A stretch of 64,000 nt of DNA from positions 8,975 through 72,974 of the forward strand of contig JARKQH010000093.1 of the NCBI GenBank assembly GCA_029974925.1, read 5' to 3'. Numbering within the stretch: the stretch's first letter is position 1; the number at the start of each line of letters is the position of its first letter. Positions 745 through 56,286 of this stretch are shown here, in pieces. Both the position numbers and the translations under genes were made by a program. The notes under the pieces were generated by a model that did not search any database, was not told where the DNA came from, and saw only the letters and a program-made list of their open reading frames with translations. Origin of the DNA: Verrucomicrobiota bacterium (GTDB taxonomy: Bacteria; Verrucomicrobiota; Verrucomicrobiia; Limisphaerales; UBA8199).

Positions 745-2014
745 ACTCGAGGAATCGCCGCCGCCATTCGGCCCGCGGCAGCTTGCCCCGCGCCGAAGCC
801 GCCAACGCCTCGACAAACCACCACTGGCGGGGAATCTGCCACGCCGGCAGCCGCGTGAGCAGAAACTGCCGCAACTCCTCCTGGGACACCTCCCCACGGG
901 GCGCCACGCAAGCCGCCACCACCTCTCCCCGCCCGGGCTCCGGGCTGGGCACGCCAAATACCAGGCATTCGCTGACCCGGGGGTGGGTCATCAGGACCCG
1001 CTCGATGCTCTCCGGCGACACCTTGCGTCCCGCCAAGTTCATCATGTCACCCGCCCGCCCCCGCAGATAGACCCGGCCCTCCCGGATTTCGCCCAGATCA
1101 CTGGTGCGAAAAACGCCCGGCTTGAGGCTCCCTGACTCGGCGGGCCAATACGTCTCGGCAACCGCCGCCCCGCGCACTTCCACGCACCCATCCTCCGCAA
1201 TTTCAACCTCCACCCCCTGCATGGGCGCCCCGACTTCCGCGGCATCCTCTCGCGGTTCCGCGCTGGAATCATAGGCGATTCCCCCCGTTTCGCTGCTGCC
1301 GTAAAAATTGTGAATCTTGAGCCGGCTCGTGGCGAACACCTCCTGTTCCAGAGGCAACGGCAGGGGGGCGCCGGCCGAAATAGCGAGCCGGACATTCGAG
1401 GGGATGGCTCCTGCCGCGTGCCACGTCCGCCACAGCGCCGGCACCGCTGGAAGCGTCAGCCCCTCATAACCGGCTGCCGCAGCACGGAGCGCCTCCGGTA
1501 AAGGCGCGCCGACCAGGATGAGCGGGATGCCGTGCAGCAACAGGGGCAAAACCAGATTCGAGAAACCATAGGAATGCGCCAACGAAATGGCCCCCAGATT
1601 TGGCCAGTCCGGCCGCAGCCCCATGGTCCGGACAATGTTCGCCGCGTCAGCCGCCAGTTGCCCGGGGCGGAAGGCAACCAGCCGGGGAACCCCCGTGGTG
1701 GCGGAGGTAAATTTCAAATGGCAGATGCCGTCGGGCAGCCCTGGCGCAACTGCGGGAGCTTCCTGGCCGGGCTCAAGGGGACACAGGATGCGCCCTTCCC
1801 GCCACGCCCGAATCACCGAAACGATGAACTCCGGTCCCCGCGCCTCGGGGAAAACCGTGGGGTCCGCCCCGCTCCCTTCCGCTTCGCCAAGGGCAGCCAG
1901 TTCGTTAAAAGTCCAGTGCCGGCCGCTCGGCGCGTCCACCAAGGCGGCCTGGGTCCCGAATTGATGCGCAACGCGCAGCCAGATTTCGTAGAGCATTGCC
2001 ACGGATGTGCCCAA
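716..2014 (-). CDS. AMP-dependent synthetase/ligase (adenylate-forming enzyme, short form)
   Basis: 432 aa with the motifs FTSATTGVPRLV, NFYGSSETGGIA and FRTSDLGEI...GRAGDMMNLAGRKVSP. The real start may be M7 (1996). The 3' end overlaps the convergent dehydratase ORF by 29 nt (716-744). Confidence 0.8.
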   Translation of the reverse strand: MGTSVAMLYEIWLRVAHQFGTQAALVDAPSGRHWTFNELAALGEAEGSGADPTVFPEARGPEFIVSVIRAWREGRILCPLEPGQEAPAVAPGLPDGICHLKFTSATTGVPRLVAFRPGQLAADAANIVRTMGLRPDWPNLGAISLAHSYGFSNLVLPLLLHGIPLILVGAPLPEALRAAAAGYEGLTLPAVPALWRTWHAAGAIPSNVRLAISAGAPLPLPLEQEVFATSRLKIHNFYGSSETGGIAYDSSAEPREDAAEVGAPMQGVEVEIAEDGCVEVRGAAVAETYWPAESGSLKPGVFRTSDLGEIREGRVYLRGRAGDMMNLAGRKVSPESIERVLMTHPRVSECLVFGVPSPEPGRGEVVAACVAPRGEVSQEELRQFLLTRLPAWQIPRQWWFVEALAASARGKLPRAEWRRRFLEFSRASSRPG

Positions 2015-2034
2015 CTCCTATCTTGGCCGCCTGA

Positions 2035-2880
2035 TTGAGGGCAAGCCGAATAAAGTCTGGCTTTCTGCCCCGCCTCGTCCGCGATGGGGGGCTGTGGAGC
2101 CTGCTGGCCGCGTTGGCGGTGTTTCTCTCCGGGTGTGCCGCGCCCCGTGCGACGGGCCCTGCCGTTACCGCACCCCGCCCCTTCCAGTTCGAGCGGGACA
2201 CCTTCGCCTTTGCCAACGAACTGGTATGGGAATACTTCTACGACCAGGAGGGTAATTGGACCACGCAAAAACAATCCCCCAAGCCAAGCTGGTCACACCG
2301 CTGCTTCCCCATGACCCTGGCGGCGCGCCAATTCTTCCATGGGGCCCGGTTCGAGGCGAGCCTGCCGCCGACCAACGGCCCCGCCTACCGCCGGCTGCTT
2401 CGTCAAGTGTTGAAAACCAATCCCCGGCATCCGCCGCCCGACGCCGCCCGCGTGGTGATTCCGGGTTACGCCAGCCTCCGCGAGTTCAGCGCGGCACATG
2501 CCCCCCTCCTTCAGGAGGCCTGCGGCGGCGCCTGGCGCTCCTATGTGCAGCGGGGCCATTGGCGGATGGTGTTTCCCTTCAGCCGCTCACACCAGGAACA
2601 AACCGCCCTGAGCCTGCTGAGCCGATTGTCGAACGAGGGACCGCGCATTGTGCATGTGCTGCGTTTTCCCAAACTCACCATCAACCATGCCTTGCTGATT
2701 TATGCCGCTCGGGAAACCCCGGAACGCATCGAGTTCCTCGCTTATGATCCCAACCAGCCCGACGCCCCCGCCCCATTAACCTACGACCGCGCCTGCCGAA
2801 GGTTCCACTTCCCCCCCAACCGCTATTTCCCGGGCGGACGCGTGGACGTTTATGAGGTCTATCATCGGTGGAATTATTGA
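2035..2880 (+). CDS. hypothetical lipoprotein
   Basis: 281 aa with a TTG start. The N-terminus LWSLLAALAVFLSGC is a signal peptide plus lipobox. No family recognised. The start is only 20 nt from the divergent ligase ORF start. Confidence 0.6.
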   Translation: MRASRIKSGFLPRLVRDGGLWSLLAALAVFLSGCAAPRATGPAVTAPRPFQFERDTFAFANELVWEYFYDQEGNWTTQKQSPKPSWSHRCFPMTLAARQFFHGARFEASLPPTNGPAYRRLLRQVLKTNPRHPPPDAARVVIPGYASLREFSAAHAPLLQEACGGAWRSYVQRGHWRMVFPFSRSHQEQTALSLLSRLSNEGPRIVHVLRFPKLTINHALLIYAARETPERIEFLAYDPNQPDAPAPLTYDRACRRFHFPPNRYFPGGRVDVYEVYHRWNY

Positions 2881-2888
2881 AGCGCCCT

Positions 2889-3275
2889 TCACAGCGGCTC
2901 GCGGCCCGCGTAACCCGCGTCGAGGTCATGCCAGAACCGAATGTCGTCTTCGTTCTTCTCCCAGCACAGGAAGACTTCGCGGCCGTTCAAGATTGCGGGA
3001 AAATCAATCAAGCCGCGGTCCAGGTCCTTGAGCTGGATTTCCCGCCGGTGAAATTCCAGCAGCACCTCGCGGAGTTCCACCAGCGTCCGGGCCCAGAGGT
3101 TGACCAGCCCGCCCCCGAGGTCAAGCCCCGGCTGCATCCGCTGCTCCAAGGCCGACTCGAGGCGGTTGAAACCATCCCGCAGCTCGATGAGCTGTTCCAG
3201 CCAGGCCCGCACCTGGGGCAGCAAGGCCCGCGCTTCCTCGAGCGTGTAATGCTTCTCGAAACGGCGGGGAGTCAC
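2889..3275 (-). CDS. DUF2203 family protein
   Basis: 128 aa with a helical N-half and the C-terminal motif REVFLCWEKNEDDIRFWHDLDAGYAGR, which I remember as typical of DUF2203. Its start overlaps the stop of the upstream TPR gene by 4 nt. Confidence 0.6.
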   Translation of the reverse strand: MTPRRFEKHYTLEEARALLPQVRAWLEQLIELRDGFNRLESALEQRMQPGLDLGGGLVNLWARTLVELREVLLEFHRREIQLKDLDRGLIDFPAILNGREVFLCWEKNEDDIRFWHDLDAGYAGREPL

Positions 3276-4984
3276 GGCGCCGTCTCGCTTCCTTCCTGAG
3301 CGGGGGAGTGGCTCTCGAGCTTCTTGCGAATCACCTCGCTGGGTTCGACCTCGAGCGCCTTGCGCCAGGCTTCACGCGCCTGGTCCATCCGCCCCAAGGC
3401 GGCCTGGATGTCTCCCAGATGATCGTAAACGGTGGCGTCCGGCTTTTCCAGATGCTCCACCGCCTTGAGAATCTGATCCAGCGCCGCGGCGGGCTCGTTG
3501 AGCTTGAACAAGACCCAGGCCAGGCTGTCCAGGTAGGCCGCGTTGTTGGGCTCGGTTTTGACCGCCTGCTCGAGCAATTCCCGGGCCCGGACGAGATTGG
3601 TGCCGCGCTCGGCCCACATGTAGCCCAGGTAGTTTTGGGCCTCGGCATAATCGGGTTTGAGGCTCAGGCATTTCTCGAAATATTTCTCCGCCATCTGATA
3701 GTCGCCCTTCCGTTCATGGGCGGCCCCCACCTGCAGGTAGAACACATGGTTGAGCCGCCTGGGGTCTGTCGCATTGGCGATCACTTCCGCGGCGGCGTAA
3801 TGCTGCAGGGCCTGTCCGTAGGCTTTCTGCTGCGCGCAGGCCAGACCGCTCAGCAGTTCGAGGAGGAAATTGGGGGCGAACCGCGCCCGGGCCTGGGCCA
3901 GCGTGGCCAGGGCGCCGGCGGCCTGGTCGGCGCCAAGCTGGGCGGAAGCCCATTCATAATAGGCCGGCTCGAAATCCGGTCGCAGCAGGACGGTTTTCCT
4001 GAAATAGTCAGCCGCTTTCTTCGCCTGACGGGCTTCCTGCGCCAGGGTGCCCAGCAGGAAGTAAGCCTGGGCGTTGGTGGGATCTTCCCGCACCAGCGCT
4101 TCCAGTTGCTCCAGTGCGCGCTCGTGGTCGCTCCCACGCAGGTAGATCTCCGCCAGCTTCGCGTGCACGTGCTCCCGCACCAGCGGCACATCCGGCAGCC
4201 GCTGCAAAACTTCAAGATAGAGCTGCGCCGCCCGTTCCGTCTCTCCCAGGAAGCTGTACCCGTCGGCCATCTTCAACTGCAGCGCCGGGGCCAGCCCGGG
4301 AAGCGCTTCCGCGCGCTTGAGCAAGCTCACCGCCAGGCCGGTGACGTTTGTCCGCCGGGTCGGAGCCTGAAGGGCGAAATTAAAGCACAGTTCCGTCAGC
4401 CCCACCAGGAACTCCGCGTCCACCTCCTTTTGCCGCGCCGCCTCCTCGAGCGTTTGAACCGCCGCGTCCAATTGTTTGGTTTGAAGCTGGACCAGAAACA
4501 GCACCTGGTAACCGCTCAACGTGGTGGGGGACTGGCGAATGGCGGCCTGACTGGCCCGCCGGGCCTCCTCCTGTTGACCGAGTTGCGAGTGCAACATGCC
4601 AAGTTGCGCGAGCAACTCGGCCGAAGCGTCGGGGTGGCTGGCGGCGCGCTGCAACAACTCGAGCGCTTTTTCCGGCTTTTTGTTTTGCAAAAAGCGCTGG
4701 CTGACTCCCAAAACCAGGTTCTCATTGGCCGGGTCAAGGGCCGCGGCTTTCCAGTATTCCTCCAGCGCGGCGTCCCAGTCGCCATTCATTTCGTGAATGA
4801 CGCCGGCTCCGTAGTGGGCCTGGGCCGCGACGGATGCGTCGGGCGTGAAAGACGATCTGCCCCCGCGCTTGAGTGCGGCAGGCGCATTGCCCCCGCGCTC
4901 CGTCCTTGAAGCCGATGCACACCCCCCCGCCATGGCCAGGGTCAAAGCCACACCACATCCCAAGGCCAATGCACGAATCCACAT
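3272..4984 (-). CDS. TPR-repeat lipoprotein
   Basis: 570 aa. Signal peptide plus lipobox (LTLAMAGGC) followed by many TPR-like repeats, for example AEAQNYLGYMWAERG and AAYLDSLAWVLFKLN. Confidence 0.8.
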   Translation of the reverse strand: MWIRALALGCGVALTLAMAGGCASASRTERGGNAPAALKRGGRSSFTPDASVAAQAHYGAGVIHEMNGDWDAALEEYWKAAALDPANENLVLGVSQRFLQNKKPEKALELLQRAASHPDASAELLAQLGMLHSQLGQQEEARRASQAAIRQSPTTLSGYQVLFLVQLQTKQLDAAVQTLEEAARQKEVDAEFLVGLTELCFNFALQAPTRRTNVTGLAVSLLKRAEALPGLAPALQLKMADGYSFLGETERAAQLYLEVLQRLPDVPLVREHVHAKLAEIYLRGSDHERALEQLEALVREDPTNAQAYFLLGTLAQEARQAKKAADYFRKTVLLRPDFEPAYYEWASAQLGADQAAGALATLAQARARFAPNFLLELLSGLACAQQKAYGQALQHYAAAEVIANATDPRRLNHVFYLQVGAAHERKGDYQMAEKYFEKCLSLKPDYAEAQNYLGYMWAERGTNLVRARELLEQAVKTEPNNAAYLDSLAWVLFKLNEPAAALDQILKAVEHLEKPDATVYDHLGDIQAALGRMDQAREAWRKALEVEPSEVIRKKLESHSPAQEGSETAP

Positions 4985-4986
4985 AT

Positions 4987-5024
4987 TAAAAAACCGTCAT
5001 CCGGCCGCTGCCGGCCGGATGACG
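4987..5024 (-). terminator. rho-independent terminator downstream of the bS22 gene
   Basis: Minus strand reads CGTCATCCGGCCG-GCAG-CGGCCGGATGACG (13-bp perfect stem, 5024->4995) followed by GTTTTTTAAT. It begins 34 nt after the bS22 stop and ends 3 nt before the TPR ATG. Confidence 0.7.
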
Positions 5025-5058
5025 CTCAAAAAGGCGGTAATCCCCCGCGAGCAGGGAA

Positions 5059-5160
5059 CTACTTCTGCCAGGTACGCTTCTTGTGGCGATGCGCGCGCAA
5101 TTTCTTGCGCCGCTTATGCTTGTTAATCTTAGCTTTGCGACGTTTCTTTAATGAACCCAT
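5059..5160 (-). CDS. 30S ribosomal protein bS22 (AURKAIP1/COX24-domain small basic protein)
   Basis: Absent from the ORF track because it is <60 aa. ATG at 5160 to TAG at 5059 encodes 33 aa: MGSLKKRRKAKINKHKRRKKLRAHRHKKRTWQK. It has the same length and MGS.(I/L)KKRRK...KHRK pattern as bS22 of mycobacteria and Bacteroidota, and is followed by a strong terminator. Confidence 0.75.
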   Translation of the reverse strand: MGSLKKRRKAKINKHKRRKKLRAHRHKKRTWQK

Positions 5161-5293
5161 ACTCGTTTGTTGATGCCAAAAACATCGTCAGGTGTTCCCG
5201 GCGATTTTACGCACCATTTGAGCCTGCCGCTGACTTTGGCCAAGCTTCAGCCTGAGGCAGGAAGCCTCTGGCGTCAAGTACCGCCTGCGTCAC

Positions 5294-6436
5294 TTACGCC
5301 GCCTTTGGCTCCGCGTCCGGGCTCTCCATCAGTTCGCGGAGTTTTCTAAACGCATCGTTTTGCAACTGCCGGATTCGCTCGCGAGTCAGGCCAAACTCCT
5401 CTCCCAACTCCTCCAGCGTTTTTTCCGGTCCCCCGTTGAGCCCAAACCGCAGCCGCAGGATCATTTCTTCCCGCTTGGGAAGACGGGGCAGCAGCCGCAT
5501 CATGAGTTCCCGGTCCGAGTTCTGTTCGAAGGCTTCGGACGGGTTGCTCGCCCGCTCGTCCGCCACCAGCTCGCCCAAGCTGCCGTCGGCATCCTCTCCA
5601 ACGGTGGCATCCAGAGAAGCGGGGCGCACGGACGCCTCCCGCAGCCGGCTGATCCGCCGCGGCTTCATGTTCAACTCATCCGCCAGTTCCTCGTCACTCG
5701 GCTCCCGGCCCAACACCTCTCTCAAGCGAACCTCTGCCCGCCCCAACCGGTAAAGTTTGCCTTCGACATGCACGGGCAGCCGAATCGTCCTGCCCTGGTT
5801 GGCCAACGCGCGGCGAATTTGCTGCTTGATCCACCACGAACCGTAGGTGGACAGTTTTCCGCCCTTGGCCGGGTTGAATCGTTCCACCGCCTTCATCAGC
5901 CCGATGGCGCCCTCGCTTATCAGGTCCAGCAAGGGCAGCCCCAAGTGTTCGTAATCACGGGCAATTTTCACCACCAGTCGCAGGTTTGCGCAGATCATTC
6001 GTTCCCGGGCTTCTTCGTCACCGGCGCGAATGCGCCGCGCCAGCGCCACCTCTTCCTGTGGTGTGAGCAGCGGCACGCGCGCAGCCTCTCTCAGAAAGGC
6101 CGCCAGTGTCGAACTGCTGGCGCCTTCACCTCGATCAGCCGGCTCGGCCAGCGGGGCAGACATGGCAAGCGTCAGCGCCTCCAGTGCGCTCAAGCTGCTC
6201 TCGGCGCCGGAATTCAGCTCAACCCTCCCCTGCCCTTTCTCGCCGGTGTTCGGGGTGCGGCTGTTCTTGCGTGCCGTCAAAGCGGCCGGCACCGAGTTCG
6301 ACCTTGCGTTCTTGCCGCACCGCTGCCGATTCCGGCCGCTTTCCTTGGCTGCCAGGCGCCTGGATGAACTGACCAGGTCAATCGGTTGTGCAGCCACGAA
6401 GACTGCCCGCGAAGCGAAGTAGTTGCGATTCATCAT
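5294..6436 (-). CDS. RNA polymerase sigma factor, sigma-70 family (RpoD/RpoS-like, non-ECF)
   Basis: 380 aa with ICANLRLVVKIARDY, DLISEGAIGLMKAVERFNPAKGGKLSTYGSWWIKQQIRRAL (region 2), TIRLPVH (region 3) and KTLEELGEEFGLTRERIRQLQNDAFRKLR (region 4.2 HTH). The N-terminal ~100 aa are low-complexity, so the start is uncertain. Confidence 0.85.
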   Translation of the reverse strand: MMNRNYFASRAVFVAAQPIDLVSSSRRLAAKESGRNRQRCGKNARSNSVPAALTARKNSRTPNTGEKGQGRVELNSGAESSLSALEALTLAMSAPLAEPADRGEGASSSTLAAFLREAARVPLLTPQEEVALARRIRAGDEEARERMICANLRLVVKIARDYEHLGLPLLDLISEGAIGLMKAVERFNPAKGGKLSTYGSWWIKQQIRRALANQGRTIRLPVHVEGKLYRLGRAEVRLREVLGREPSDEELADELNMKPRRISRLREASVRPASLDATVGEDADGSLGELVADERASNPSEAFEQNSDRELMMRLLPRLPKREEMILRLRFGLNGGPEKTLEELGEEFGLTRERIRQLQNDAFRKLRELMESPDAEPKAA

Positions 6437-6592
6437 GTCTATAATATGTCTAATCCTTTATCTGCTGTCAATGGATTGTCGAATATTTTTCTTATTCTGT
6501 ATGCTTTTGCCATTCTGTTGGATGTGCAATTCAGCGACCTTGACATGAAAGATTTTATCAGTTTGTGGTTTGCCTGATGTCTGAAACTTGTC
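6435..6592. promoter_or_regulatory. AT-rich divergent control region with three pairs of TGTC motifs at 11-bp spacing (candidate CarH/MerR-type operators)
   Basis: TGTC occurs at 6436/6447 (both within the exact 7-mer ATGTCTA), at 6466/6477 and at 6578/6589. ATTCTGT is also repeated at 6494 and 6512. The region is far more AT-rich than its flanks. Confidence 0.4.
6443..6471 (-). promoter_or_regulatory. candidate sigma-70-type promoter for the sigma-factor gene
   Basis: Minus strand reads TTGACA (6471->6466), a 17-nt spacer, then CATATT (6448->6443). The predicted TSS is about 7 nt downstream, at the A of the ATG (6436), which would make the mRNA leaderless. Hexamers were read by eye only. 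Confidence 0.3.
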
Positions 6593-6598
6593 TATGTT
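6570..6598 (+). promoter_or_regulatory. candidate promoter for the carH-like gene
   Basis: TTGCCT (6570-6575), a 17-nt spacer, then TATGTT (6593-6598). The spacer contains the TGTC pair at 6578/6589. The predicted TSS is ~6605, next to the alternative ATG at 6606. Weak hexamers. Confidence 0.25.
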
Positions 6599-7550
6599 TA
6601 AACAAATGGCTGAAATCAGACATTCAATCAAAGCAGTCTCACGCAAAACCGGTCTTAGCGCCCATGTCATTCGCGTTTGGGAAAGGCGATACAAAGCGGT
6701 TCAACCTTCTCGAACAGGCACCAACCGTCGCCTTTACTCGGAAGCCGATGTGGAAAGGCTGGGCTTGTTGAAGCAGGCGACGCAGGCGGGTCACAGTATT
6801 GGGACGATTGCGGACCTGCCGGTTGACCGTTTAATGAAGATTGCGGCGGAGGCCGCGGCGGCGTCGTCCAAGGCGCCGCCCGAAGGAGGCCTCGGGAAAG
6901 CCGAGCAGTTTGTCCGGGATTGCCTGACCGCAATAAAAGAAATGAACGGCCGCGCGTTGGATGAGCGCCTTGGGCAGGCCTTGATTCATTTCGGGCAGCA
7001 CGGCCTTTTGGAAAAGGTCATCGGCGTTCTGGCCCAACGGGTGGGCGACCTGTGGCGCGCCGGAGAAATTCTCGCGGCTCATGAACATTTCGCCAGCGCT
7101 GCAATCAGGGGCTTTCTGGGCCGCAACGCGCGTCCCTTCGCGCCCGGGAGCAATCTCCCGACCCTGGTGGTGGGAACTCCCTCGGGCCAACTGCACGAAT
7201 TGGGGGCGGTCATGGTTGCGGCCGGGGCAAACGATTTGGGGTGGCGGGTGGTGTATTTGGGGCCCAGTCTGCCGGCGGGCGAGTTGGCGGCAGCGGCGGC
7301 CCAAAACCAGGCCCGCGCGGTCGCGCTCAGCCTGGTGTACCCCGAGGACGACCCCCATCTTGCGGCCGAGCTCAGAGCCTTGCGTCAATACCTGCCCCCG
7401 GCAACAGCCATCCTCGCGGGAGGACGGGCCGCCCCGGCCTACGAGGCGGCGCTGAATGAAATCGGGGCTTTGCAGCCTCGCACCATGGGTGAATTCTACG
7501 CCTGCCTGGAGAATCTGCGAAAAGCCCGGTCCAAACGGTCCCCCGAATGA
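6588..7550 (+). CDS. carH: MerR-family, cobalamin-binding light-sensing regulator (CarH/LitR type)
   Basis: 320 aa. N-terminal MerR HTH (IKAVSRKTGLSAHVIRVWERRY...RTGTNRRLYSEADVERL). The W-x9-EH motif is exact (W156 RAGEILAAH E166 H167). The B12-binding Rossmann domain has the lower-ligand motif SGQLHELG (His203). An alternative start is at 6606 (MAEIRHS). Confidence 0.85.
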   Translation: MSMFKQMAEIRHSIKAVSRKTGLSAHVIRVWERRYKAVQPSRTGTNRRLYSEADVERLGLLKQATQAGHSIGTIADLPVDRLMKIAAEAAAASSKAPPEGGLGKAEQFVRDCLTAIKEMNGRALDERLGQALIHFGQHGLLEKVIGVLAQRVGDLWRAGEILAAHEHFASAAIRGFLGRNARPFAPGSNLPTLVVGTPSGQLHELGAVMVAAGANDLGWRVVYLGPSLPAGELAAAAAQNQARAVALSLVYPEDDPHLAAELRALRQYLPPATAILAGGRAAPAYEAALNEIGALQPRTMGEFYACLENLRKARSKRSPE

Positions 7551-7562
7551 AAGGGGACCGAT

Positions 7563-7772
7563 TCAAATCCGGGTGCGAATGCCACAGGCGCGCAAAAGGC
7601 ACCAGCCGCGCGCGGCCTCATACAAGATAAATCCTCCGGCCGACACCAGCCCGACACACCACCACTGCCCCTCCTGCGACACCAGCAGACCGGTAACAAT
7701 CAAAGCCGTGCCTCCCAGAGCCCGAACCAGCCGCCCGCGAGGATCAAGATTTCGTGAAAAGAATCTTTTCAT
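7563..7772 (-). CDS. DUF2892 (YgaP-like) small membrane protein
   Basis: The internal Met gives a 69-aa product, MKRFFSRNLDPRGRLVRALGGTALIVTGLL...GGFILYEAARGWCLLRACGIRT. It has two hydrophobic helices and the C-terminal GWC...C pattern typical of DUF2892. The longer ORF start (7856) would overlap the neighbouring gene. Confidence 0.65.
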   Translation of the reverse strand: MKRFFSRNLDPRGRLVRALGGTALIVTGLLVSQEGQWWCVGLVSAGGFILYEAARGWCLLRACGIRTRI

Positions 7773-7846
7773 GCCGACATGTAGCACAGCATTGCTGAAT
7801 CGCCAAAGCGGGCGCCGCTCATCAATCGTCAAGCACAGCAGCCTCC

Positions 7847-8317
7847 ATGCACACATTCAGCCTGCGGACTGACCTCTGGCTGCCAAGGCCCATCCAGGAA
7901 GTATTCCGGTTCTTCGCGGACGCCGGCAATCTGCAAACGATCACACCGCCCTGGCTGAGCTTCGAGATTCTGACTCCCCTGCCCATCCTGATGCGGCCCG
8001 GGGCGGTGATAGATTATCGGCTGCGCCTGCACGGATTTCCGATTCGGTGGCAGACGGAAATCACCTCCTGGGAACCCCCATTCCGGTTCGTGGACGAACA
8101 ACGGCGCGGCCCTTATCTTTTGTGGATTCACGAACATCGCTTTGAGCCTCTCGACGGCGGCACCCGTGTCGAGGATTACGTCAGGTATCGGCCGCCCGGC
8201 GGCTGGCTGGTCGAGCGATTGTTCGTCCGGCGGGATGTGACCCGGATTTTTGCGTTCCGCCGGCAAAAGCTTCAGGAACTGTTCGCGGACAGCTCGAGCG
8301 AGAAACCCACGGCCTAA
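7847..8317 (+). CDS. SRPBCC (cyclase/dehydrase-like) family protein
   Basis: 156 aa. MHTFSLRTDLWLPRPIQEVFRFFADAGNLQTITPPWL...IDYRLRLHGFPIRWQTEIT matches the SRPBCC ligand-binding fold family pattern. Confidence 0.7.
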   Translation: MHTFSLRTDLWLPRPIQEVFRFFADAGNLQTITPPWLSFEILTPLPILMRPGAVIDYRLRLHGFPIRWQTEITSWEPPFRFVDEQRRGPYLLWIHEHRFEPLDGGTRVEDYVRYRPPGGWLVERLFVRRDVTRIFAFRRQKLQELFADSSSEKPTA

Positions 8318-8357
8318 GCGAGACCGCGCCGGACGGGGCGAATGGTCCCCCCCGCCG

Positions 8358-9749
8358 CTAGCCGAGTTTGGGCACTACGGTCGTGTAGGTCAGCGGCGGC
8401 ACCACGCGCCCGTCCCCGGTGGTGACTTTGCGCGCCTTTTCGTCGTAGAACAACGCCAGACCGAGCCGCTCGGACATTTCGGCCAGGCACAAAACCACGT
8501 GGGAGCGGAAGGCCAGGTCCACGTTGGCGATGGGCGTCTGACCCGAGCGGATGCAGTCGAAGAAGTGCTTCTCCAGGACTTCAATCCGTTCGGTCGGGCG
8601 CGGATCCGAGAATGTGTCGGCATCAATCTCCTCGCTGAAGATGGACTCGGGTTTGAGCTCGACCTTGTTGCCCTGGGAGGCAAAGTAGAGAGTGGCCTGA
8701 CGGCCGCGCAGCATCTCGGGAAGCCCCACCTGGTTGACCGTCGAGCCGGCGACCACCAGCGTCAAGCCACTGGGAAACTCCGCCAGCAGATGGGTGGTGT
8801 CCGTAATCTCGCGGTCGGTGGACACCTTCCGCGTCCCGGTGCAGACGACCCGCCGGGGGAATTCCGGGTTGCCGCTGGCCAACATGAGCGGAATGAAGCG
8901 GTGGGGCAGCAAGTTGCCGATGATGCCGGAGTTGTAGGCATAGAACTTGTGCCAACTGAAAAAGTGGTTCGGGTTGAATGGAATCTTTGGCGCGCGGCCC
9001 AGCCAGCGGTACCAATCCAGGTTTTGTTCGTTGGCGGTCGGGTCCACCGGGTAGGTCCACTCGCTGTTTTTCGGATTGTTGCGGCAATAAGAGCCCTGGC
9101 CCCAGACCAGCGGCCCCAGCTTGCCCGCCTTGACCCATTCGGCCGCCTTGTGCCATTTGGGGTCCATCGAGCCCTGCGACCCGATCACGTAAACCTTCCC
9201 GGTCCGCTTGATCGTGTCATAAACTTCAAAGGCCTCCTCCAAATACCGCGTCATCGGTTTTTCGCAGAAGACATGCTTGCCCGCCTCGGCTGCGTCAATG
9301 CTGACTTGGGCATGCCAGTTGTCCACCGTGGAAATCACCACCGCGTCAATGTCCTTGCGCTCCAGCATCTTGCGGTGGTCGCGGTAGGCATCGGCGTCTT
9401 TCAAGCCCACGTAAGCCTGCGCCTCCTGCAGATTCTTCTGATACAAATCGCATACCGCCACCTGCGCAATGTTGTTGTCGGCGGCAAATTTTTTCTGCAG
9501 CCGGATATGGGTCATCCCCTGTTTTCCCGTGCCGACATAGGCCACGTTGATGCGGTCGTTGGCGCCAAGCACCCGGCCGGGGCTGGGGGCCTGGTTCTGG
9601 CCGTAAACGGGGGCGCGCAGCCAGGCGCCGGCCCCGACGGCGGCCGCCGCGGTGGCGGCCTGACGGAGAAAATCGCGCCGGGTGCTTGCCGGAGGACTTT
9701 TGTGGCTCGAATGATCTTTCATAGGTTGCGAAGTCATCGCTGCGTTCAA
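8358..9749 (-). CDS. Gfo/Idh/MocA-family oxidoreductase with Tat signal
   Basis: 463 aa. Twin-arginine signal STRRDFLRQAATAAAAVGAGA, Rossmann motif INVAYVGTGKQG, and CEKP in HVFCEKPM, typical of the family. Confidence 0.85.
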   Translation of the reverse strand: MNAAMTSQPMKDHSSHKSPPASTRRDFLRQAATAAAAVGAGAWLRAPVYGQNQAPSPGRVLGANDRINVAYVGTGKQGMTHIRLQKKFAADNNIAQVAVCDLYQKNLQEAQAYVGLKDADAYRDHRKMLERKDIDAVVISTVDNWHAQVSIDAAEAGKHVFCEKPMTRYLEEAFEVYDTIKRTGKVYVIGSQGSMDPKWHKAAEWVKAGKLGPLVWGQGSYCRNNPKNSEWTYPVDPTANEQNLDWYRWLGRAPKIPFNPNHFFSWHKFYAYNSGIIGNLLPHRFIPLMLASGNPEFPRRVVCTGTRKVSTDREITDTTHLLAEFPSGLTLVVAGSTVNQVGLPEMLRGRQATLYFASQGNKVELKPESIFSEEIDADTFSDPRPTERIEVLEKHFFDCIRSGQTPIANVDLAFRSHVVLCLAEMSERLGLALFYDEKARKVTTGDGRVVPPLTYTTVVPKLG

Positions 9750-52527: not shown

Positions 52528-53184
52528 TTACTGCATCGCCTGGATGAACTCGTCCGCCTTGGCGATGGACGCGTTCATGTCGGCGATAAGATTGGCGATT
52601 TCGAGCTGGATGTGGGTGGCCTCGCCCCGGAGGGAAGCGATCGCCTGGGCGTTGAGGTTGTGCTTGAGGTAGAGCACCTGGTCGCGCAGTTTGGTTAAGA
52701 CCGGTTCCATGCTGCCCTCCGCTCGTTTGAGGGCGGCGACCATTTGATCATAACGCGCGCGGGTATCGCGAAGCTGGCGACGGCTGCTCTCCGCCAGGGA
52801 GGCGGTGGACATCTGATTGATCTCCTGCTCCCACTCCTTGAAAAGGTCCGCGCCAACACTCTCAACGTCCGCGATGCGTTTGCGGACGGCGGACGCGCGG
52901 TCGGCGGATTTTTTGTAGTCGGATTCGAGGTCGCGGTAGGCCTTCTCCAGTTTTCCTCCGTCAAAGCTGTAGATTTCCTTGAGGCGGGTCAAAGCGTCCT
53001 TGAACTGCTCGCTGGCGGCCTGTTGATCGTCGCGGGCGGCCGCCACCCGCTTCTTCAGGAGGTCGCGCTTATAAACCCCGAGTTTTTCGTAAGCGGCGTA
53101 GTAGGTGGATTTGCAGCCGGAGAAAATGCCCGACAGGCAAATCATGCCGACCGCCAAGAGCCACGCGCCCATGTATTTGTTCAC
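52528..53184 (-). CDS. DUF2959 family lipoprotein
   Basis: Only the 3' ~657 nt of the 1115-aa ORF look real. (V)NKYMGAWLLAVGMICLSGIFSGC is a signal peptide plus lipobox, followed by a helical protein (YAAYEKLGVYKRDLLKKRV...) typical of DUF2959. The start is GTG 53184 or ATG 53172. Confidence 0.7.
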   Translation of the reverse strand: MNKYMGAWLLAVGMICLSGIFSGCKSTYYAAYEKLGVYKRDLLKKRVAAARDDQQAASEQFKDALTRLKEIYSFDGGKLEKAYRDLESDYKKSADRASAVRKRIADVESVGADLFKEWEQEINQMSTASLAESSRRQLRDTRARYDQMVAALKRAEGSMEPVLTKLRDQVLYLKHNLNAQAIASLRGEATHIQLEIANLIADMNASIAKADEFIQAMQ

Positions 53185-53370
53185 GCCAAAAAGAATACGA
53201 CTATCCCTCTGTGCCGCAAGCTCCACTTGCCGCCGCGTGGGGAAAAGCCCTCCGCCGCGCCGCCCCCGCCGGCCGGTCCAACTCGCTGAGGCTGTCACTC
53301 CCCACTTGCCCTTCGCAACGGGCCGATGCTTAATCGTCGCCGTGGCGGGCAAGGTCAGCCGCCGGGTGTG

Positions 53371-54546
53371 ATGTCCAAAATTCCCAAAGTCATTTTGTTG
53401 ATTGAGTCCTCGCGGGAGGCCGGGCGCGCGCTGCTGCGGGGCATTGCCAATTACGCCCATCACCACGGTCCCTGGTCCTTTTATTGGGAACCCGCCGGGC
53501 TGGAACGAGCGTGGCCGTTGCTGCGGGAAATGGAGGCCGACGGGATCATCCTGCGGGATGTCGGCAATCTCGACGAGGTGCTGGGCCTGCACATCCCGGC
53601 GGTGGTGGTGGGGCATCAGCATCAGGAAGTCGGCGGCTTGGTCAACGTGGTGACCGACTCGCGCGCCCTGGGGCGCATGGCGGCCGAACACCTCCTGAGT
53701 TGCGGCTTTCGGCATTTTGCCTTCTGCGGTTACTCCAGCAGCGCGCAGGAGCAGACCACCTGGTCCGGCGAGCGGCATCAGGCGTTTTCGCAGCGGGTGG
53801 CGGAGGCCGGTTTCGAGCCGGCCCCCGATTACGTTCTGTCGCCGACGGGATCGGACTGGCCCGCGCAACGGCGACGCCTGGCGGCCTGGCTCAAGTCCCT
53901 GCCGACGCCGGTGGGGTTGTTGAGCTGCAACGATGATTGCGGGGCCCAGGTGATGGAAGCCTGTAAAGATGCGGGGCTGACGGTCCCGGACAGCGTCGGC
54001 GTTATCGGGGCCGACAACGACGAACTGGTCTGCGGGCTTTCGGACCCGCCGATGTCGAGCGTGGCAATCAATTTTGAGCGGGCGGGTTATGAGGCGGCGC
54101 ACGCGTTGGAGCGGCTCATGCGAAAGCGCCAGCCCGTGCCGGCCAAGATCATCGCCCTGCCGACCCACATCGTCACCCGGCGCTCGACTGATGTCATCGC
54201 GGTAAGCGATCCGGTGGTGGCGCGGGCGTTGCGATTCATTCGCGACCATCCCGGCCACCCGATTCGCGTCGAGGAGGTCGCCAAGCTCGCGAGCCTGTCG
54301 CGCCGCACCCTCGAGCGCCGTTTCCGCCGCGTCATGGGCTGCTCGGTCCTTCATCAGATTCGCCGCGTGCGCAGCGACGAAATTGCCCGGCTGCTGCTGG
54401 AAACCCAACTGCCTGTGGGCCAGATCGCCGCCCGCCTCGGTTTCGCCGACGTGCAGCATTTTGCCCGATATTTCCGCGCCACACGACGCACCACCCCCCT
54501 GGCGTTTCGCCGGGCTTTGGGGAAACATCCGGCCGCTTCGGGATGA
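53371..54546 (+). CDS. XylR-like transcriptional regulator (LacI-type sugar-binding domain + AraC HTH)
   Basis: MSKIPKVILLIESSREAGRALLRGIANYA... is the periplasmic-binding-protein-like fold. The C-terminal SRRTLERRFRRVMGCSVLHQIRRVR...GFADVQHFARYFR is an AraC-type double HTH. Confidence 0.85.
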   Translation: MSKIPKVILLIESSREAGRALLRGIANYAHHHGPWSFYWEPAGLERAWPLLREMEADGIILRDVGNLDEVLGLHIPAVVVGHQHQEVGGLVNVVTDSRALGRMAAEHLLSCGFRHFAFCGYSSSAQEQTTWSGERHQAFSQRVAEAGFEPAPDYVLSPTGSDWPAQRRRLAAWLKSLPTPVGLLSCNDDCGAQVMEACKDAGLTVPDSVGVIGADNDELVCGLSDPPMSSVAINFERAGYEAAHALERLMRKRQPVPAKIIALPTHIVTRRSTDVIAVSDPVVARALRFIRDHPGHPIRVEEVAKLASLSRRTLERRFRRVMGCSVLHQIRRVRSDEIARLLLETQLPVGQIAARLGFADVQHFARYFRATRRTTPLAFRRALGKHPAASG

Positions 54547-54723
54547 CGAAGGTTCCGCGGGGCCCGCCTGGGCTTCGAGGCGCCGCCGCACCCGGGACGT
54601 GGAGGCCGGAAAGCGCTTGTGACAGGGAGGGGCAAAATGGCCGTGCCACCTTTGGGGGGAAAACCCGCGCCGCGAGACAATGTCAGCATTGCGAGAGCCG
54701 GTCCGCTCACGTAAACGTATGGC

Positions 54724-56286
54724 GTGAAACACGCGCATTCCGCGGCCGCAACGACCCCGGCACTCCTGCCGGGGTTGCGTTATTATCTCTATTTGACCGC
54801 CTTCACGACGGGCGCGGTCATCATGGTGGTGGAAATTCTCGGCGCCAAGATGCTCTCGCCCTTCGTTGGCACCTCGCATTTCGTGTGGACGGCGCAGATT
54901 GCGGTGACGCTTGTGGCGCTGGCTTGCGGCTATTACGCCGGCGGCTGGCTTGCGGACCGCGCGCGGCGGCTTGACGGCATTTATTGGGCCATTGCCGCCG
55001 CCGGGACCTATTTGGGAATCAGCATCAAACTGGTCGAACCGGTGGCCTTCTGGTGCCTCGAGTTCAATCTGGCGGTGGGCACACTCCTGGCCTCGATGGT
55101 GCTGTTCTTCGTGCCGCTGGCCCTGTTGGCAATGACCGGCCCCTTTCTGATCCGTTTCGTCACCGCGTCCCTCAGCGCCGTGGGAGGCAGCGTGGGCCGG
55201 CTGACCGCCATTGGCACGCTGGGGAGCTTCGCCGGCACGATGCTCATCGGCTACGTGATGATCCCCTTGCTGGCCAACCCGCCGGCCATGTTCGCCACCG
55301 CGCTGGCATTGTTGGTGGTCAGCGCCGCTTACTTCCTGTTCACCCCCCGGCGCGGAGCCATGAGCCTGCCCTTGCTGGCGGGAGTCACGGTGGGCATCCT
55401 CACGCTGCCCGAGCTGCTGGGCCCGCCCCGCCACACTCGCATGGTGGAACGCTTCCGCGGCAATTCGCATTTCGGCCAGCTTTTGGTCCTGGACCGACCT
55501 GACGGTTCCTGCCGCTACTACTTGAATGACAACCTCATTCAAAACACCTATGCGCCGGAAACCCGGCAGAGCGTTTCGACCTTCACCTACATGCTCTCGG
55601 GTCTGGCGCGCGCCTACACGACCAATCTTCACGATGTGCTCTGCATCGGCCTGGGGGTGGGCATTGTGCCTTCCGAATTCGCGCGCGAGGGAGCGCGCGT
55701 GGACGTCGTGGAAATCAACCCGGCCGTGGTCCCCGTCGCGCGCCGTTTTTTTGACTTCGACCCCGGGCGGGTGAGCCTGTATTTGGGCGATGGCCGCCAC
55801 TATCTGAACCGCTGCAGCCGCCAGTACGACACGGTGATTCTCGATGCGTTCCTGGGCGATTCTTCGCCGTCGCACCTGATGACCCGGGAGGCGTTCGCCG
55901 CGATTCGACGGGTCCTGCGTCCCGGCGGCACGCTGGTCATCAACAGCTTCGCGGACGCCACCCCCGGACAGGACTTCTTCGCCGCTTCACTTGGAAAGAC
56001 CCTGCGCGCAGTTTTCCCCGGCGTGCGCCTGCACAGCAACTCGGACGGCGCCATCTTCTTCGTCGCGACCGACCGGCCGCATCCCGAATTTGTCCGCCCC
56101 CCCGATTTTTCCCAAGTCCATCCTGATGTGCGGCTGCCGACCGAGCGGGCATTTAACAACCGGCTGGAAGTGCCCTCCGAACACGGACTGGTGCTCACGG
56201 ACGACTACAATCCGGTCGAATTCTACGACGCGCATCATCGGGAGAACATCCGCCGTGAGCTGGCACGGGCGGCCCGTTTTCTGTGA
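54724..56286 (+). CDS. fused membrane domain/spermidine synthase-like protein
   Basis: 520 aa with a GTG start. ~7 TM segments, then an aminopropyltransferase/methyltransferase fold: VLCIGLGVGIVPSEF...VDVVEINP...YDTVILDAF. Confidence 0.8.
   Translation: MKHAHSAAATTPALLPGLRYYLYLTAFTTGAVIMVVEILGAKMLSPFVGTSHFVWTAQIAVTLVALACGYYAGGWLADRARRLDGIYWAIAAAGTYLGISIKLVEPVAFWCLEFNLAVGTLLASMVLFFVPLALLAMTGPFLIRFVTASLSAVGGSVGRLTAIGTLGSFAGTMLIGYVMIPLLANPPAMFATALALLVVSAAYFLFTPRRGAMSLPLLAGVTVGILTLPELLGPPRHTRMVERFRGNSHFGQLLVLDRPDGSCRYYLNDNLIQNTYAPETRQSVSTFTYMLSGLARAYTTNLHDVLCIGLGVGIVPSEFAREGARVDVVEINPAVVPVARRFFDFDPGRVSLYLGDGRHYLNRCSRQYDTVILDAFLGDSSPSHLMTREAFAAIRRVLRPGGTLVINSFADATPGQDFFAASLGKTLRAVFPGVRLHSNSDGAIFFVATDRPHPEFVRPPDFSQVHPDVRLPTERAFNNRLEVPSEHGLVLTDDYNPVEFYDAHHRENIRRELARAARFL

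Follow-up and report, generated by a model that had tools for sequence, protein, structure and literature searches.

A predicted B12-dependent light switch paired with an alternative sigma factor gene in a Verrucomicrobiota bacterium

Introduction

The CarH/LitR photoreceptors control carotenoid operons either directly or by way of extracytoplasmic function (ECF) sigma factors. Here we analyzed a 64,000-nucleotide stretch of DNA from a Verrucomicrobiota bacterium (contig JARKQH010000093.1, positions 8,975 to 72,974; hereafter the window), in which a gene for a CarH/LitR-type regulator lies back to back with a gene for a sigma-70 factor that is not of the ECF type. We think it likely that the two genes make up a light switch of class I of the CarH/LitR family, which uses adenosylcobalamin (AdoCbl), and that its direct output is an alternative sigma factor.

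CarH of Thermus thermophilus (also LitR; PDB 5C8A/5C8D/5C8E) and the class I CarH/LitR of Bacillus megaterium have the same three-part architecture as the window regulator, with the Wx9EH motif, the axial histidine and the SxV...GG residues. The folds match, and in these systems, as is predicted for the window locus, 11-bp direct-repeat operators lie over housekeeping-type promoters. Autoregulation appears to be alike, and the carotenoid targets of the Thermus and Bacillus proteins match the probable targets in loci orthologous to ours. The window regulator differs in sharing only ~30% identity with these proteins, in belonging to a Verrucomicrobiota-specific clade and in carrying a C-terminal helix of ~30 amino acids. 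Relative to T. thermophilus CarH (TtCarH), it has Q for E in ExHxxG and lacks an equivalent of H132. Its control region is bidirectional, with repeat pairs spaced 11-19-11, and its sole divergent target would be the sigma gene.

In Streptomyces, the AdoCbl-dependent regulator LitR adjoins a light-induced sigma gene whose product, LitS, relays the signal, and this two-tier cascade resembles what we propose for the window locus. LitS is an ECF (group 4) factor needed for transcription of the crt genes (PMC11519972, PMC9758184), whereas the window sigma resembles group 2 and has regions 1.2 and 3 and a full region 4. The relatives of the window locus also differ from LitR-LitS in that their crt genes appear to be co-transcribed with the sigma gene rather than dependent on it. 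Myxococcus xanthus CarH/CarA with CarQ offers a further likeness, in that B12-based repression of a carotenoid operon is combined with an alternative sigma factor in the light response. However, CarQ is an ECF factor that is released from its anti-sigma by singlet oxygen and is not a CarH target, unlike the predicted role of the window sigma, and the CarS-like and CarR-like genes of M. xanthus have no counterpart at the window locus.

Group 2 sigma factors, such as Escherichia coli RpoS and cyanobacterial SigB-E, have the same regions 1.2-4 as the window sigma, without region 1.1 or the insert, and retain the same TRERIRQ residues for the −35 element. They are expressed conditionally alongside a primary sigma, as we suppose for the window sigma. 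The latter scores under the RpoS equivalog cut-off, has distinct residues in regions 2.4 and 3.0, and is apparently gated at the level of transcription by a B12 photoreceptor. To our knowledge, gating of a group 2 sigma by a B12 photoreceptor has not been described before. A literature search for CarH in Verrucomicrobia, or for CarH/LitR control of a non-ECF sigma, found none, with incomplete coverage that gives no proof of novelty.

Results

A CarH-type regulator

The two genes at the center of this study are listed here.

6588..7550, + strand: CarH/LitR class I-type regulator gene (MerR winged helix-turn-helix, four-helix bundle with Wx9EH, Rossmann B12 domain), from Pfam, PDB, fold match and motifs
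5294..6436, − strand: group-2-like (RpoS/SigA-like) alternative sigma-70 gene, from Pfam, NCBIfam, PDB, alignment and neighbor-joining (NJ) tree

The original prediction gave the regulator a MerR helix-turn-helix, an exact W-x9-EH motif and a lower axial histidine within QLHELG, and all three were confirmed by Pfam, by the codons and by alignment. Pfam assigned MerR_1 (PF13411, residues 13-76, E=1e-17), B12-binding_2 (9e-8) and B12-binding (3e-12), and the MerR domain aligned with TtCarH's DNA-binding domain when phmmer was run against the PDB. The Wx9EH stretch reads WRAGEILAAHEH, in which W156 (TGG, 7053) is followed by nine residues and by E166-H167 (H167 = CAT, 7086); the lower axial H203 is encoded by CAC at 7194. 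These residue numbers refer to the open reading frame (ORF) as called, which begins with TTG at 6588 and encodes 320 amino acids. The true start is probably the ATG at 6606 (314 amino acids), because homologues begin at MAEIRH.

CarH homologues have been defined by Wx9EH together with ExHx2G-x41-SxV/T-x22-27-GG (PMC8156234). The full B12 motif of the window regulator is QLH203ELG-x41-S248LV-x27-G278G279, and its spacing and all of its residues fit except Q201. A signature of light-responsive cobalamin domains, consisting of GxxW, EH, GxxH and GxxxP (SignatureFinder; PMC11796333), is complete in the regulator as G153DLW, E166H, G200QLH and G187SNLP. Class I of the LitR nomenclature comprises the AdoB12-based regulators (PMC9758184), and the window regulator, judged by its sequence, belongs with them.

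In a phmmer search of the PDB, full-length TtCarH ranked first (3whp/5c8d, E~1e-23), and W156/E166/H167/H203 aligned with W131/E141/H142/H177 of TtCarH (5c8d, E=1e-23). Relatives were collected by a pattern scan that took one genome per species and yielded >585 relatives, the best 80 loci of which were used for the counts given below. Nearly all of these 80 were metagenome-assembled genomes (MAGs) of Verrucomicrobiota (Limisphaerales, Pedosphaera and similar), although some binning titles were clearly mislabelled. W156, E166, H167 and H203 were invariant in an alignment of the window protein with 25 relatives (26 family members). The family alignment served as input for an AlphaFold model, whose pLDDT was 85.6. 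Foldseek comparison of this model with the PDB gave TtCarH chains (5c8d/8c31) as all of the top 29 matches, and the B12 domain superposed on that of TtCarH with an rmsd of ~2.9 A and a TM of ~0.8. Fold matches to 8j2x/8jbt had prompted us to consider a photocobilin-type architecture, with an extra bilin-binding domain; it was rejected since only ~30 residues follow the Rossmann domain. The CarH/LitR-type identity proposed for the regulator holds up in that the protein, apart from Q201, conforms to the published sequence definitions of CarH and folds like TtCarH, and its B12 binding and light response are predicted on this ground.

The same data bear on a different reading, in which the regulator is of the MerR type and binds B12 but does not sense light, acting as a CarA-like B12-independent repressor or as a sensor of cobalamin availability in a locus unrelated to light. 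Replacement of E/D by Q in the B12 motif, absence of the bis-His histidine and a CarH equivalog score far under the cut-off are what such a protein might display. We consider this improbable, however, because Wx9EH, which is absent from CarA, is invariant in the family, the light-responsive signature is complete, and orthologous loci have carotenoid genes under the same repeats.

Promoters and repeats between the two genes

The spacer between the divergent genes (6437-6587) is 151 bp long with 36% GC, compared with 63% GC for the window, in line with the AT-rich region of ~150 bp that was first reported. The following elements were located in and around it.

6443..6471, − strand: sigma promoter, TTGACA (6471-6466), 17 nt, CATATT (6448-6443); promoter scan, 10/12 matches
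6436..6452, + strand: repeat pair TGTCTA-N5-TGTCTA over the −10/+1 of the sigma promoter; exact match
6466..6482, + strand: second pair, TGTCAA-N5-TGTCGA, covering the sigma promoter's −35; 2 mismatches
6570..6598, + strand: putative regulator promoter, TTGCCT (6570-6575), 17 nt, TATGTT (6593-6598); read from the sequence
6578..6594, + strand: proximal pair TGTCTG-N5-TGTCTA, overlapping the spacer and the −10 of the promoter assigned to the regulator itself; 1 mismatch

The sigma ATG (6436) lies 7 nt past the −10 of its promoter, and ATG 6606 of the regulator lies 8 nt past the −10 of the promoter assigned to it. The regulator promoter was inferred rather than found by the consensus scan; its TTGCnn −35-like element is conserved in relatives. 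A plus-strand TTGACA at 6540 was tried as the −35 of the regulator and discarded, as it has no usable −10 at 16-18 nt. Judging by the 7-8 nt between the −10 and the ATG and by the absence of a Shine-Dalgarno sequence, both divergent genes look leaderless. For the sigma mRNA this is probable, because the layout TTGACA-17-CAnAnT-6 nt-ATG was present in 13/14 loci in which a sigma gene comes first in the divergent direction.

A search for TGTCTA-N5-TGTCTA with up to 2 mismatches gave 3 matches in the 64 kb, against a chance expectation of 0.52. All three fell within 6436-6594, and no further copies were found elsewhere in the window. Read on the minus strand, the −35 TTGACA of the sigma promoter is the TGTCAA repeat itself, and the −10 together with the start site is covered by the two TAGACA repeats. 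The placement of the proximal pair points to probable autoregulation of the regulator. CarH operators have been described as direct repeats of nAnnTnnACAn with a promoter-occlusion geometry (PMC8156234). The predicted operator in the window likewise consists of tandem 11-bp repeats over a housekeeping-type promoter, and by its layout it fits this geometry.

We then compared the upstream regions of relatives, using 75 related loci for the repeat statistics and 76 loci for the upstream consensus blocks. Within the 260 nt that precede carH, TGTCTA-N5-TGTCTA reached a density of 9.7 per kb, compared with 0.026 per kb elsewhere, which is an enrichment of ~370-fold, and all matches were on the carH strand. 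A proximal site within 50 nt of the carH ATG was found in 58/75 loci, and a distal site in 66/75. The proximal conserved block, directly 5' of the carH ATG and downstream of the TTGCnn −35-like element, is tTGTCTAatTTtTGTCTA. The distal conserved block, ~115-190 nt upstream of carH, is TGTnnA-N5-TGTCTA-N13-TGTCAA-N5-TGTCTAA, and the consensus TGTCAA..tTTTGTCTAA was present in 67/76 loci. When reverse-complemented, the 11-bp consensus unit tTGTCTAatTT agrees with the TtCarH repeat nAnnTnnACAn at 5/5 specified positions, including one T that was not forced by the search pattern. In locus L001, an 82% identical and fully syntenic relative, the promoter and all three repeat pairs are kept. The repeats accompany carH whether the divergent gene is a sigma, crtI-family, fasciclin or SDR gene. 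That CarH-type 11-bp direct repeats overlie the sigma promoter supports the suggestion that the sigma gene is paired with predicted light control.

Some features of these repeats could be explained differently, if they were promoter elements or the sites of another factor and the regulator acted elsewhere. The distal 11-19-11 spacing differs from the operators of T. thermophilus and B. megaterium CarH, and one repeat coincides with the −35 hexamer (TGTCAA being the reverse complement of TTGACA). Yet the repeats follow carH whatever the divergent gene and keep to the carH strand at both promoters; they are also phased at 11 bp and agree with the repeat consensus of CarH, and the DNA-binding domain of the regulator is close to that of TtCarH. 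It is very improbable, on this evidence, that the TGTCTA repeats are not the operator of the regulator.

A group-2-like sigma factor

The sigma ORF (5294..6436, − strand) encodes 380 amino acids. It had been described as a sigma-70 factor with full regions 2-4 and not as an ECF factor, and Pfam agreed on both points, with matches to Sigma70 r1_2 (PF00140, E=2e-12), r2, r3 (PF04539, E=3e-21) and r4. ECF (group 4) factors have regions 2 and 4 only, and the window sigma cannot be placed among them because regions 1.2 and 3 are present. SigA and RpoS structures in the PDB matched at E~1e-70. The best NCBIfam models were those of RpoS and RpoD/SigA, with all RpoD/RpoS equivalogs under cut-off; for the RpoS equivalog TIGR02394 the score was 291 against a cut-off of 379, so that the protein is not RpoS itself. 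Region 1.1 and the non-conserved insert are both absent, and the N-terminal ~100 amino acids are basic and poorly conserved.

Canonical RpoD proteins of ~600 amino acids, with region 1.1 and the insert, were found in two related loci: L011, which has the carH-sigma-crt arrangement (6500-8437, +), and L080, which has no carH-linked sigma (4502-6340, +). In both of these Verrucomicrobiota MAGs the rpoD gene lies ~4 kb from carH. The carH-linked sigmas differ from these RpoD proteins in region 2.4, the RpoD box (WIKQQIRRA vs WIRQAITRS), in region 3.0 (HVADKIY vs HMIETINK) and in region 4.2 (RQLQN vs RQIEAKA); TRERIRQ is retained.

One could still suppose that the divergent gene encodes the primary, housekeeping sigma of the organism, as regions 1.2-4 are present, the protein strongly resembles SigA/RpoD, and no other sigma gene occurs in the 64-kb window. 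We give this almost no credence. The protein lacks region 1.1 and the insert, its RpoD box is altered, its equivalog scores are below cut-off, and L011 has both this type of sigma and a canonical RpoD. The original prediction had named a sole housekeeping sigma as an outcome that would overturn it, and L011, having the same pairing with a separate canonical RpoD, indicates that this is not the case. The domain content, the similarity to SigA/RpoS and the coexistence with RpoD in L011 all fit group 2, and conditional expression is suggested by the operator. We concluded from these comparisons that the window sigma is an alternative factor of group-2-like type and, from the trees described next, that it was inherited together with carH.

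Sigma relatives were sought by a metagenome scan using the sigma alignment, which kept the 80 best-scoring among the first 600 pattern matches, a sample and not a census. These 80 relatives (55-63% identity) are not linked to carH, so linkage to carH is not a property of all members of this sigma family. In an NJ (distance) tree, built like that of carH without support values, 18/23 carH-linked sigmas, including that of the window, formed a clade of their own apart from the 80 unlinked relatives. The carH tree was congruent with the sigma tree, and the window, L001 and L029 were sister to the sigma-crt clade.

Divergent genes and operons in relatives

Genes at the related loci were placed by targeted tblastn together with database gene calls. 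In about 22 loci the first divergent gene encoded a secreted protein with a fasciclin domain, in about 18 a crtI-family desaturase and in 4 an SDR; in 16/81 sequences (80 loci and the window) it was a sigma gene. The conserved operon behind the first gene contains two crtI-family genes, aldH, in some cases a PQQ beta-propeller gene, and genes for a 319-aa protein and a family-2 glycosyltransferase. The crtI-family call rests on TIGR02734 (518-539 bits against an NCBIfam cut-off of 238), and crtI-family genes were found within 5 kb of carH in 46/80 loci. This gene set resembles those of C30 glycosyl-carotenoic-acid pathways, to which we would provisionally assign it; pigments of the C30 glycosyl-carotenoic-acid type are known from the verrucomicrobium Rubritalea (PMC3967232).

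A fasciclin (FAS1) gene was seen upstream of carH in loci L009, L016, L022, L039-L042, L044-L047, L051, L057-L060, L073, L075 and L077. Neither the fasciclin gene nor the PQQ-type beta-propeller is a usual member of carotenoid clusters.

A sigma gene was present in the divergent operon in 21/80 loci (about 70 of them evaluable), usually as the first gene, and crt genes came after it in 15 of these 21. Where sigma was first and crtN next, the gap was 26-53 nt, which implies co-transcription. In the window, L001/L081/L082 and L029, carH and sigma are kept and no crt genes stand behind sigma. The carH-sigma pairing is not accidental, as far as such comparisons can tell, because it recurs in 21/80 loci and the tree of the regulator is congruent with that of sigma. 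Because most relatives appear to co-transcribe sigma with carotenoid genes, we read the ancestral wiring as one in which sigma was added to a carotenoid operon and did not take its place, and the "sigma only" state of the window lineage looks derived. The locus had been proposed to differ in wiring from both LitS and direct carotenoid control. A non-ECF sigma is indeed linked to the regulator, which sustains one part of this proposal; the other part is qualified by most of the relatives with the pairing, in which sigma belongs to a carotenoid operon.

The derived state invites a less favorable interpretation, namely that the window lineage lost or moved its pigment genes, so that its sigma is a left-over passenger without a dedicated light regulon, perhaps redundant with other group-2-like sigmas. 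The crtI-family genes that follow sigma in the same operon, behind a housekeeping-type promoter, in 15 of the 21 sigma-containing loci and that are missing from the window, L001 and L029 would suit such a remnant, as would the large family of similar sigmas that exists away from carH. Against it, the sigma ORF is intact with all of the invariant residues of its clade, the promoter and three repeat pairs are likewise undamaged and are conserved in L001, and the carH-linked sigmas group in a separate clade that is congruent with carH, which argues for maintained function. We therefore regard an evolutionary remnant as unlikely.

Genes adjacent to the locus

Three genes flank the pair.

5059..5160, − strand: bS22-like basic peptide gene, 33 aa; weak PDB matches
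7563..7856, − strand: YgaP-like small membrane protein (DUF2892 type); Pfam; conserved carH companion in most of the 80 loci
7847..8317, + strand: SRPBCC (polyketide-cyclase-like) protein, carH companion; Pfam, synteny

The 33-aa ORF is very basic. Its PDB matches at E<=10 were three bS22 ribosomal proteins only (best E=0.064, weak), and it had no match in Pfam or NCBIfam. Two strong terminator-like hairpins (5062-5037 and 5024-4995) come after this ORF, and the gene for a tetratricopeptide repeat (TPR) protein starts at 4984. Transcription had been said to continue from sigma into the bS22, TPR lipoprotein and DUF2203 genes. The bS22-like ORF does follow sigma, but co-transcription with the TPR and DUF2203 genes is doubtful because the two hairpins precede the TPR gene, and the transcript is probably interrupted there.

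The YgaP-like and SRPBCC genes are the most conserved neighbors of carH, and most loci have a carH-ygaP-SRPBCC operon; ygaP is inverted in the sigma-first clade, the window included. The real ygaP-like gene is probably 7563-7772 (69 aa), because the gene call in L081 is 69 aa. A TAGCAC-N14-17-GCAAA motif lies between ygaP and SRPBCC in the window (7773-7846) and in the equivalent spacers of relatives (L001, L003-L006, L011, L014, L019, L023, L025 and L083). On the minus strand it reads TTGnnn-16-TGCTAAnnn-6 nt-ATG, a leaderless-looking promoter without TGTCTA repeats. Because it is promoter-like and lacks these repeats, we speculate that this spacer promoter is a candidate target of the predicted light-induced sigma.

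Outside the locus, the window holds housekeeping genes (pgk, tpiA, secG, the pyruvate dehydrogenase complex, asnS, glmS, hprK) and efflux pumps. A 1115-aa ORF at 52528-55875 (−) is covered by Pfam DUF2959 over its last 190 residues, and its 900-residue N-terminal part is without a match. In L081, the nearest relative with shared synteny, RHS/YD-repeat toxin genes and an Imm32-type immunity gene (1265-5597) lie just past DUF2203; at that position the window has an AMP-binding enzyme gene and FabA-like genes.

Discussion

We propose that the locus would work as follows, with B12 binding, light response, repression and the regulon of the sigma all taken from the mechanism of the family. In the dark, the AdoCbl-loaded regulator would form a tetramer and set its MerR-type domains on the 11-bp-phased TGTCTA repeats. 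The pair at 6578-6594 would cover the −10 of the regulator promoter, and the pairs at 6436-6452 and 6466-6482 would cover the −10/+1 and the −35 of the sigma promoter, so that RNA polymerase with the housekeeping sigma would be kept off both. In the light, the Co-C bond would be photolysed, the tetramer would dissociate and both promoters would fire. The divergent, probably leaderless, transcript would then yield the group-2-like sigma, which would redirect part of the RNA polymerase to unlinked promoters, most likely those of photoprotection or carotenoid genes.

Several observations weigh against this proposal. Q201 (7188-7190) replaces the canonical E/D at the start of the B12 motif in every family member, and H132, the bis-His light-state residue of TtCarH, corresponds to R157 (7056-7058); these two changes may mean altered photochemistry. 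The NCBIfam CarH equivalog NF052513 (TransRegCarH) scored 105.3 bits against a cut-off of 400. Because this score is far under the cut-off and identity to TtCarH is about 30%, the regulator is to be seen as a distant branch of CarH. The distal repeats are spaced 11-19-11 and do not follow one another directly at 11 bp. The carotenoid genes of most relatives are on one transcript with the sigma gene and so need no sigma. A separate RpoD is known from the relative L011 and not from this genome. None of the 80 sigma relatives in the metagenome sample is next to carH, and the sigma family is, from this comparison, wider than the light locus. Finally, no second sigma, carotenoid, photolyase or cobalamin genes were found anywhere in the 64-kb window.

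With these points taken into account, a class I light switch with an alternative sigma as its direct output is the reading we favor. A farther-reaching version, for a clade of Limisphaerales/Pedosphaera-like Verrucomicrobiota, is put forward only tentatively: the sigma would act there as master regulator of a light or photo-oxidative-stress regulon spread over the whole genome, and in the window lineage the pigment genes would have left the locus and now depend on it.

A primary-like sigma as the direct target of a CarH/LitR photoreceptor would, if true, be a new output layer in B12 photobiology, and the resulting cascade from CarH to a group 2 sigma would be mechanistically distinct from LitR-LitS, with its ECF factor, and from CarQ. 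The predicted operator is compact and bidirectional, with three TGTCTA pairs in about 160 bp and two probably leaderless promoters. The divergent CarH subfamily, with QxHxxG and no bis-His histidine, may be useful for residue tests of AdoCbl photochemistry and for optogenetic parts. For the organisms themselves, the locus predicts light-induced synthesis of C30-type carotenoids in many Verrucomicrobiota known only as MAGs, and it would connect the sensing of light with the choice of promoters on a global scale, in a phylum that has been little studied and is mostly uncultured.

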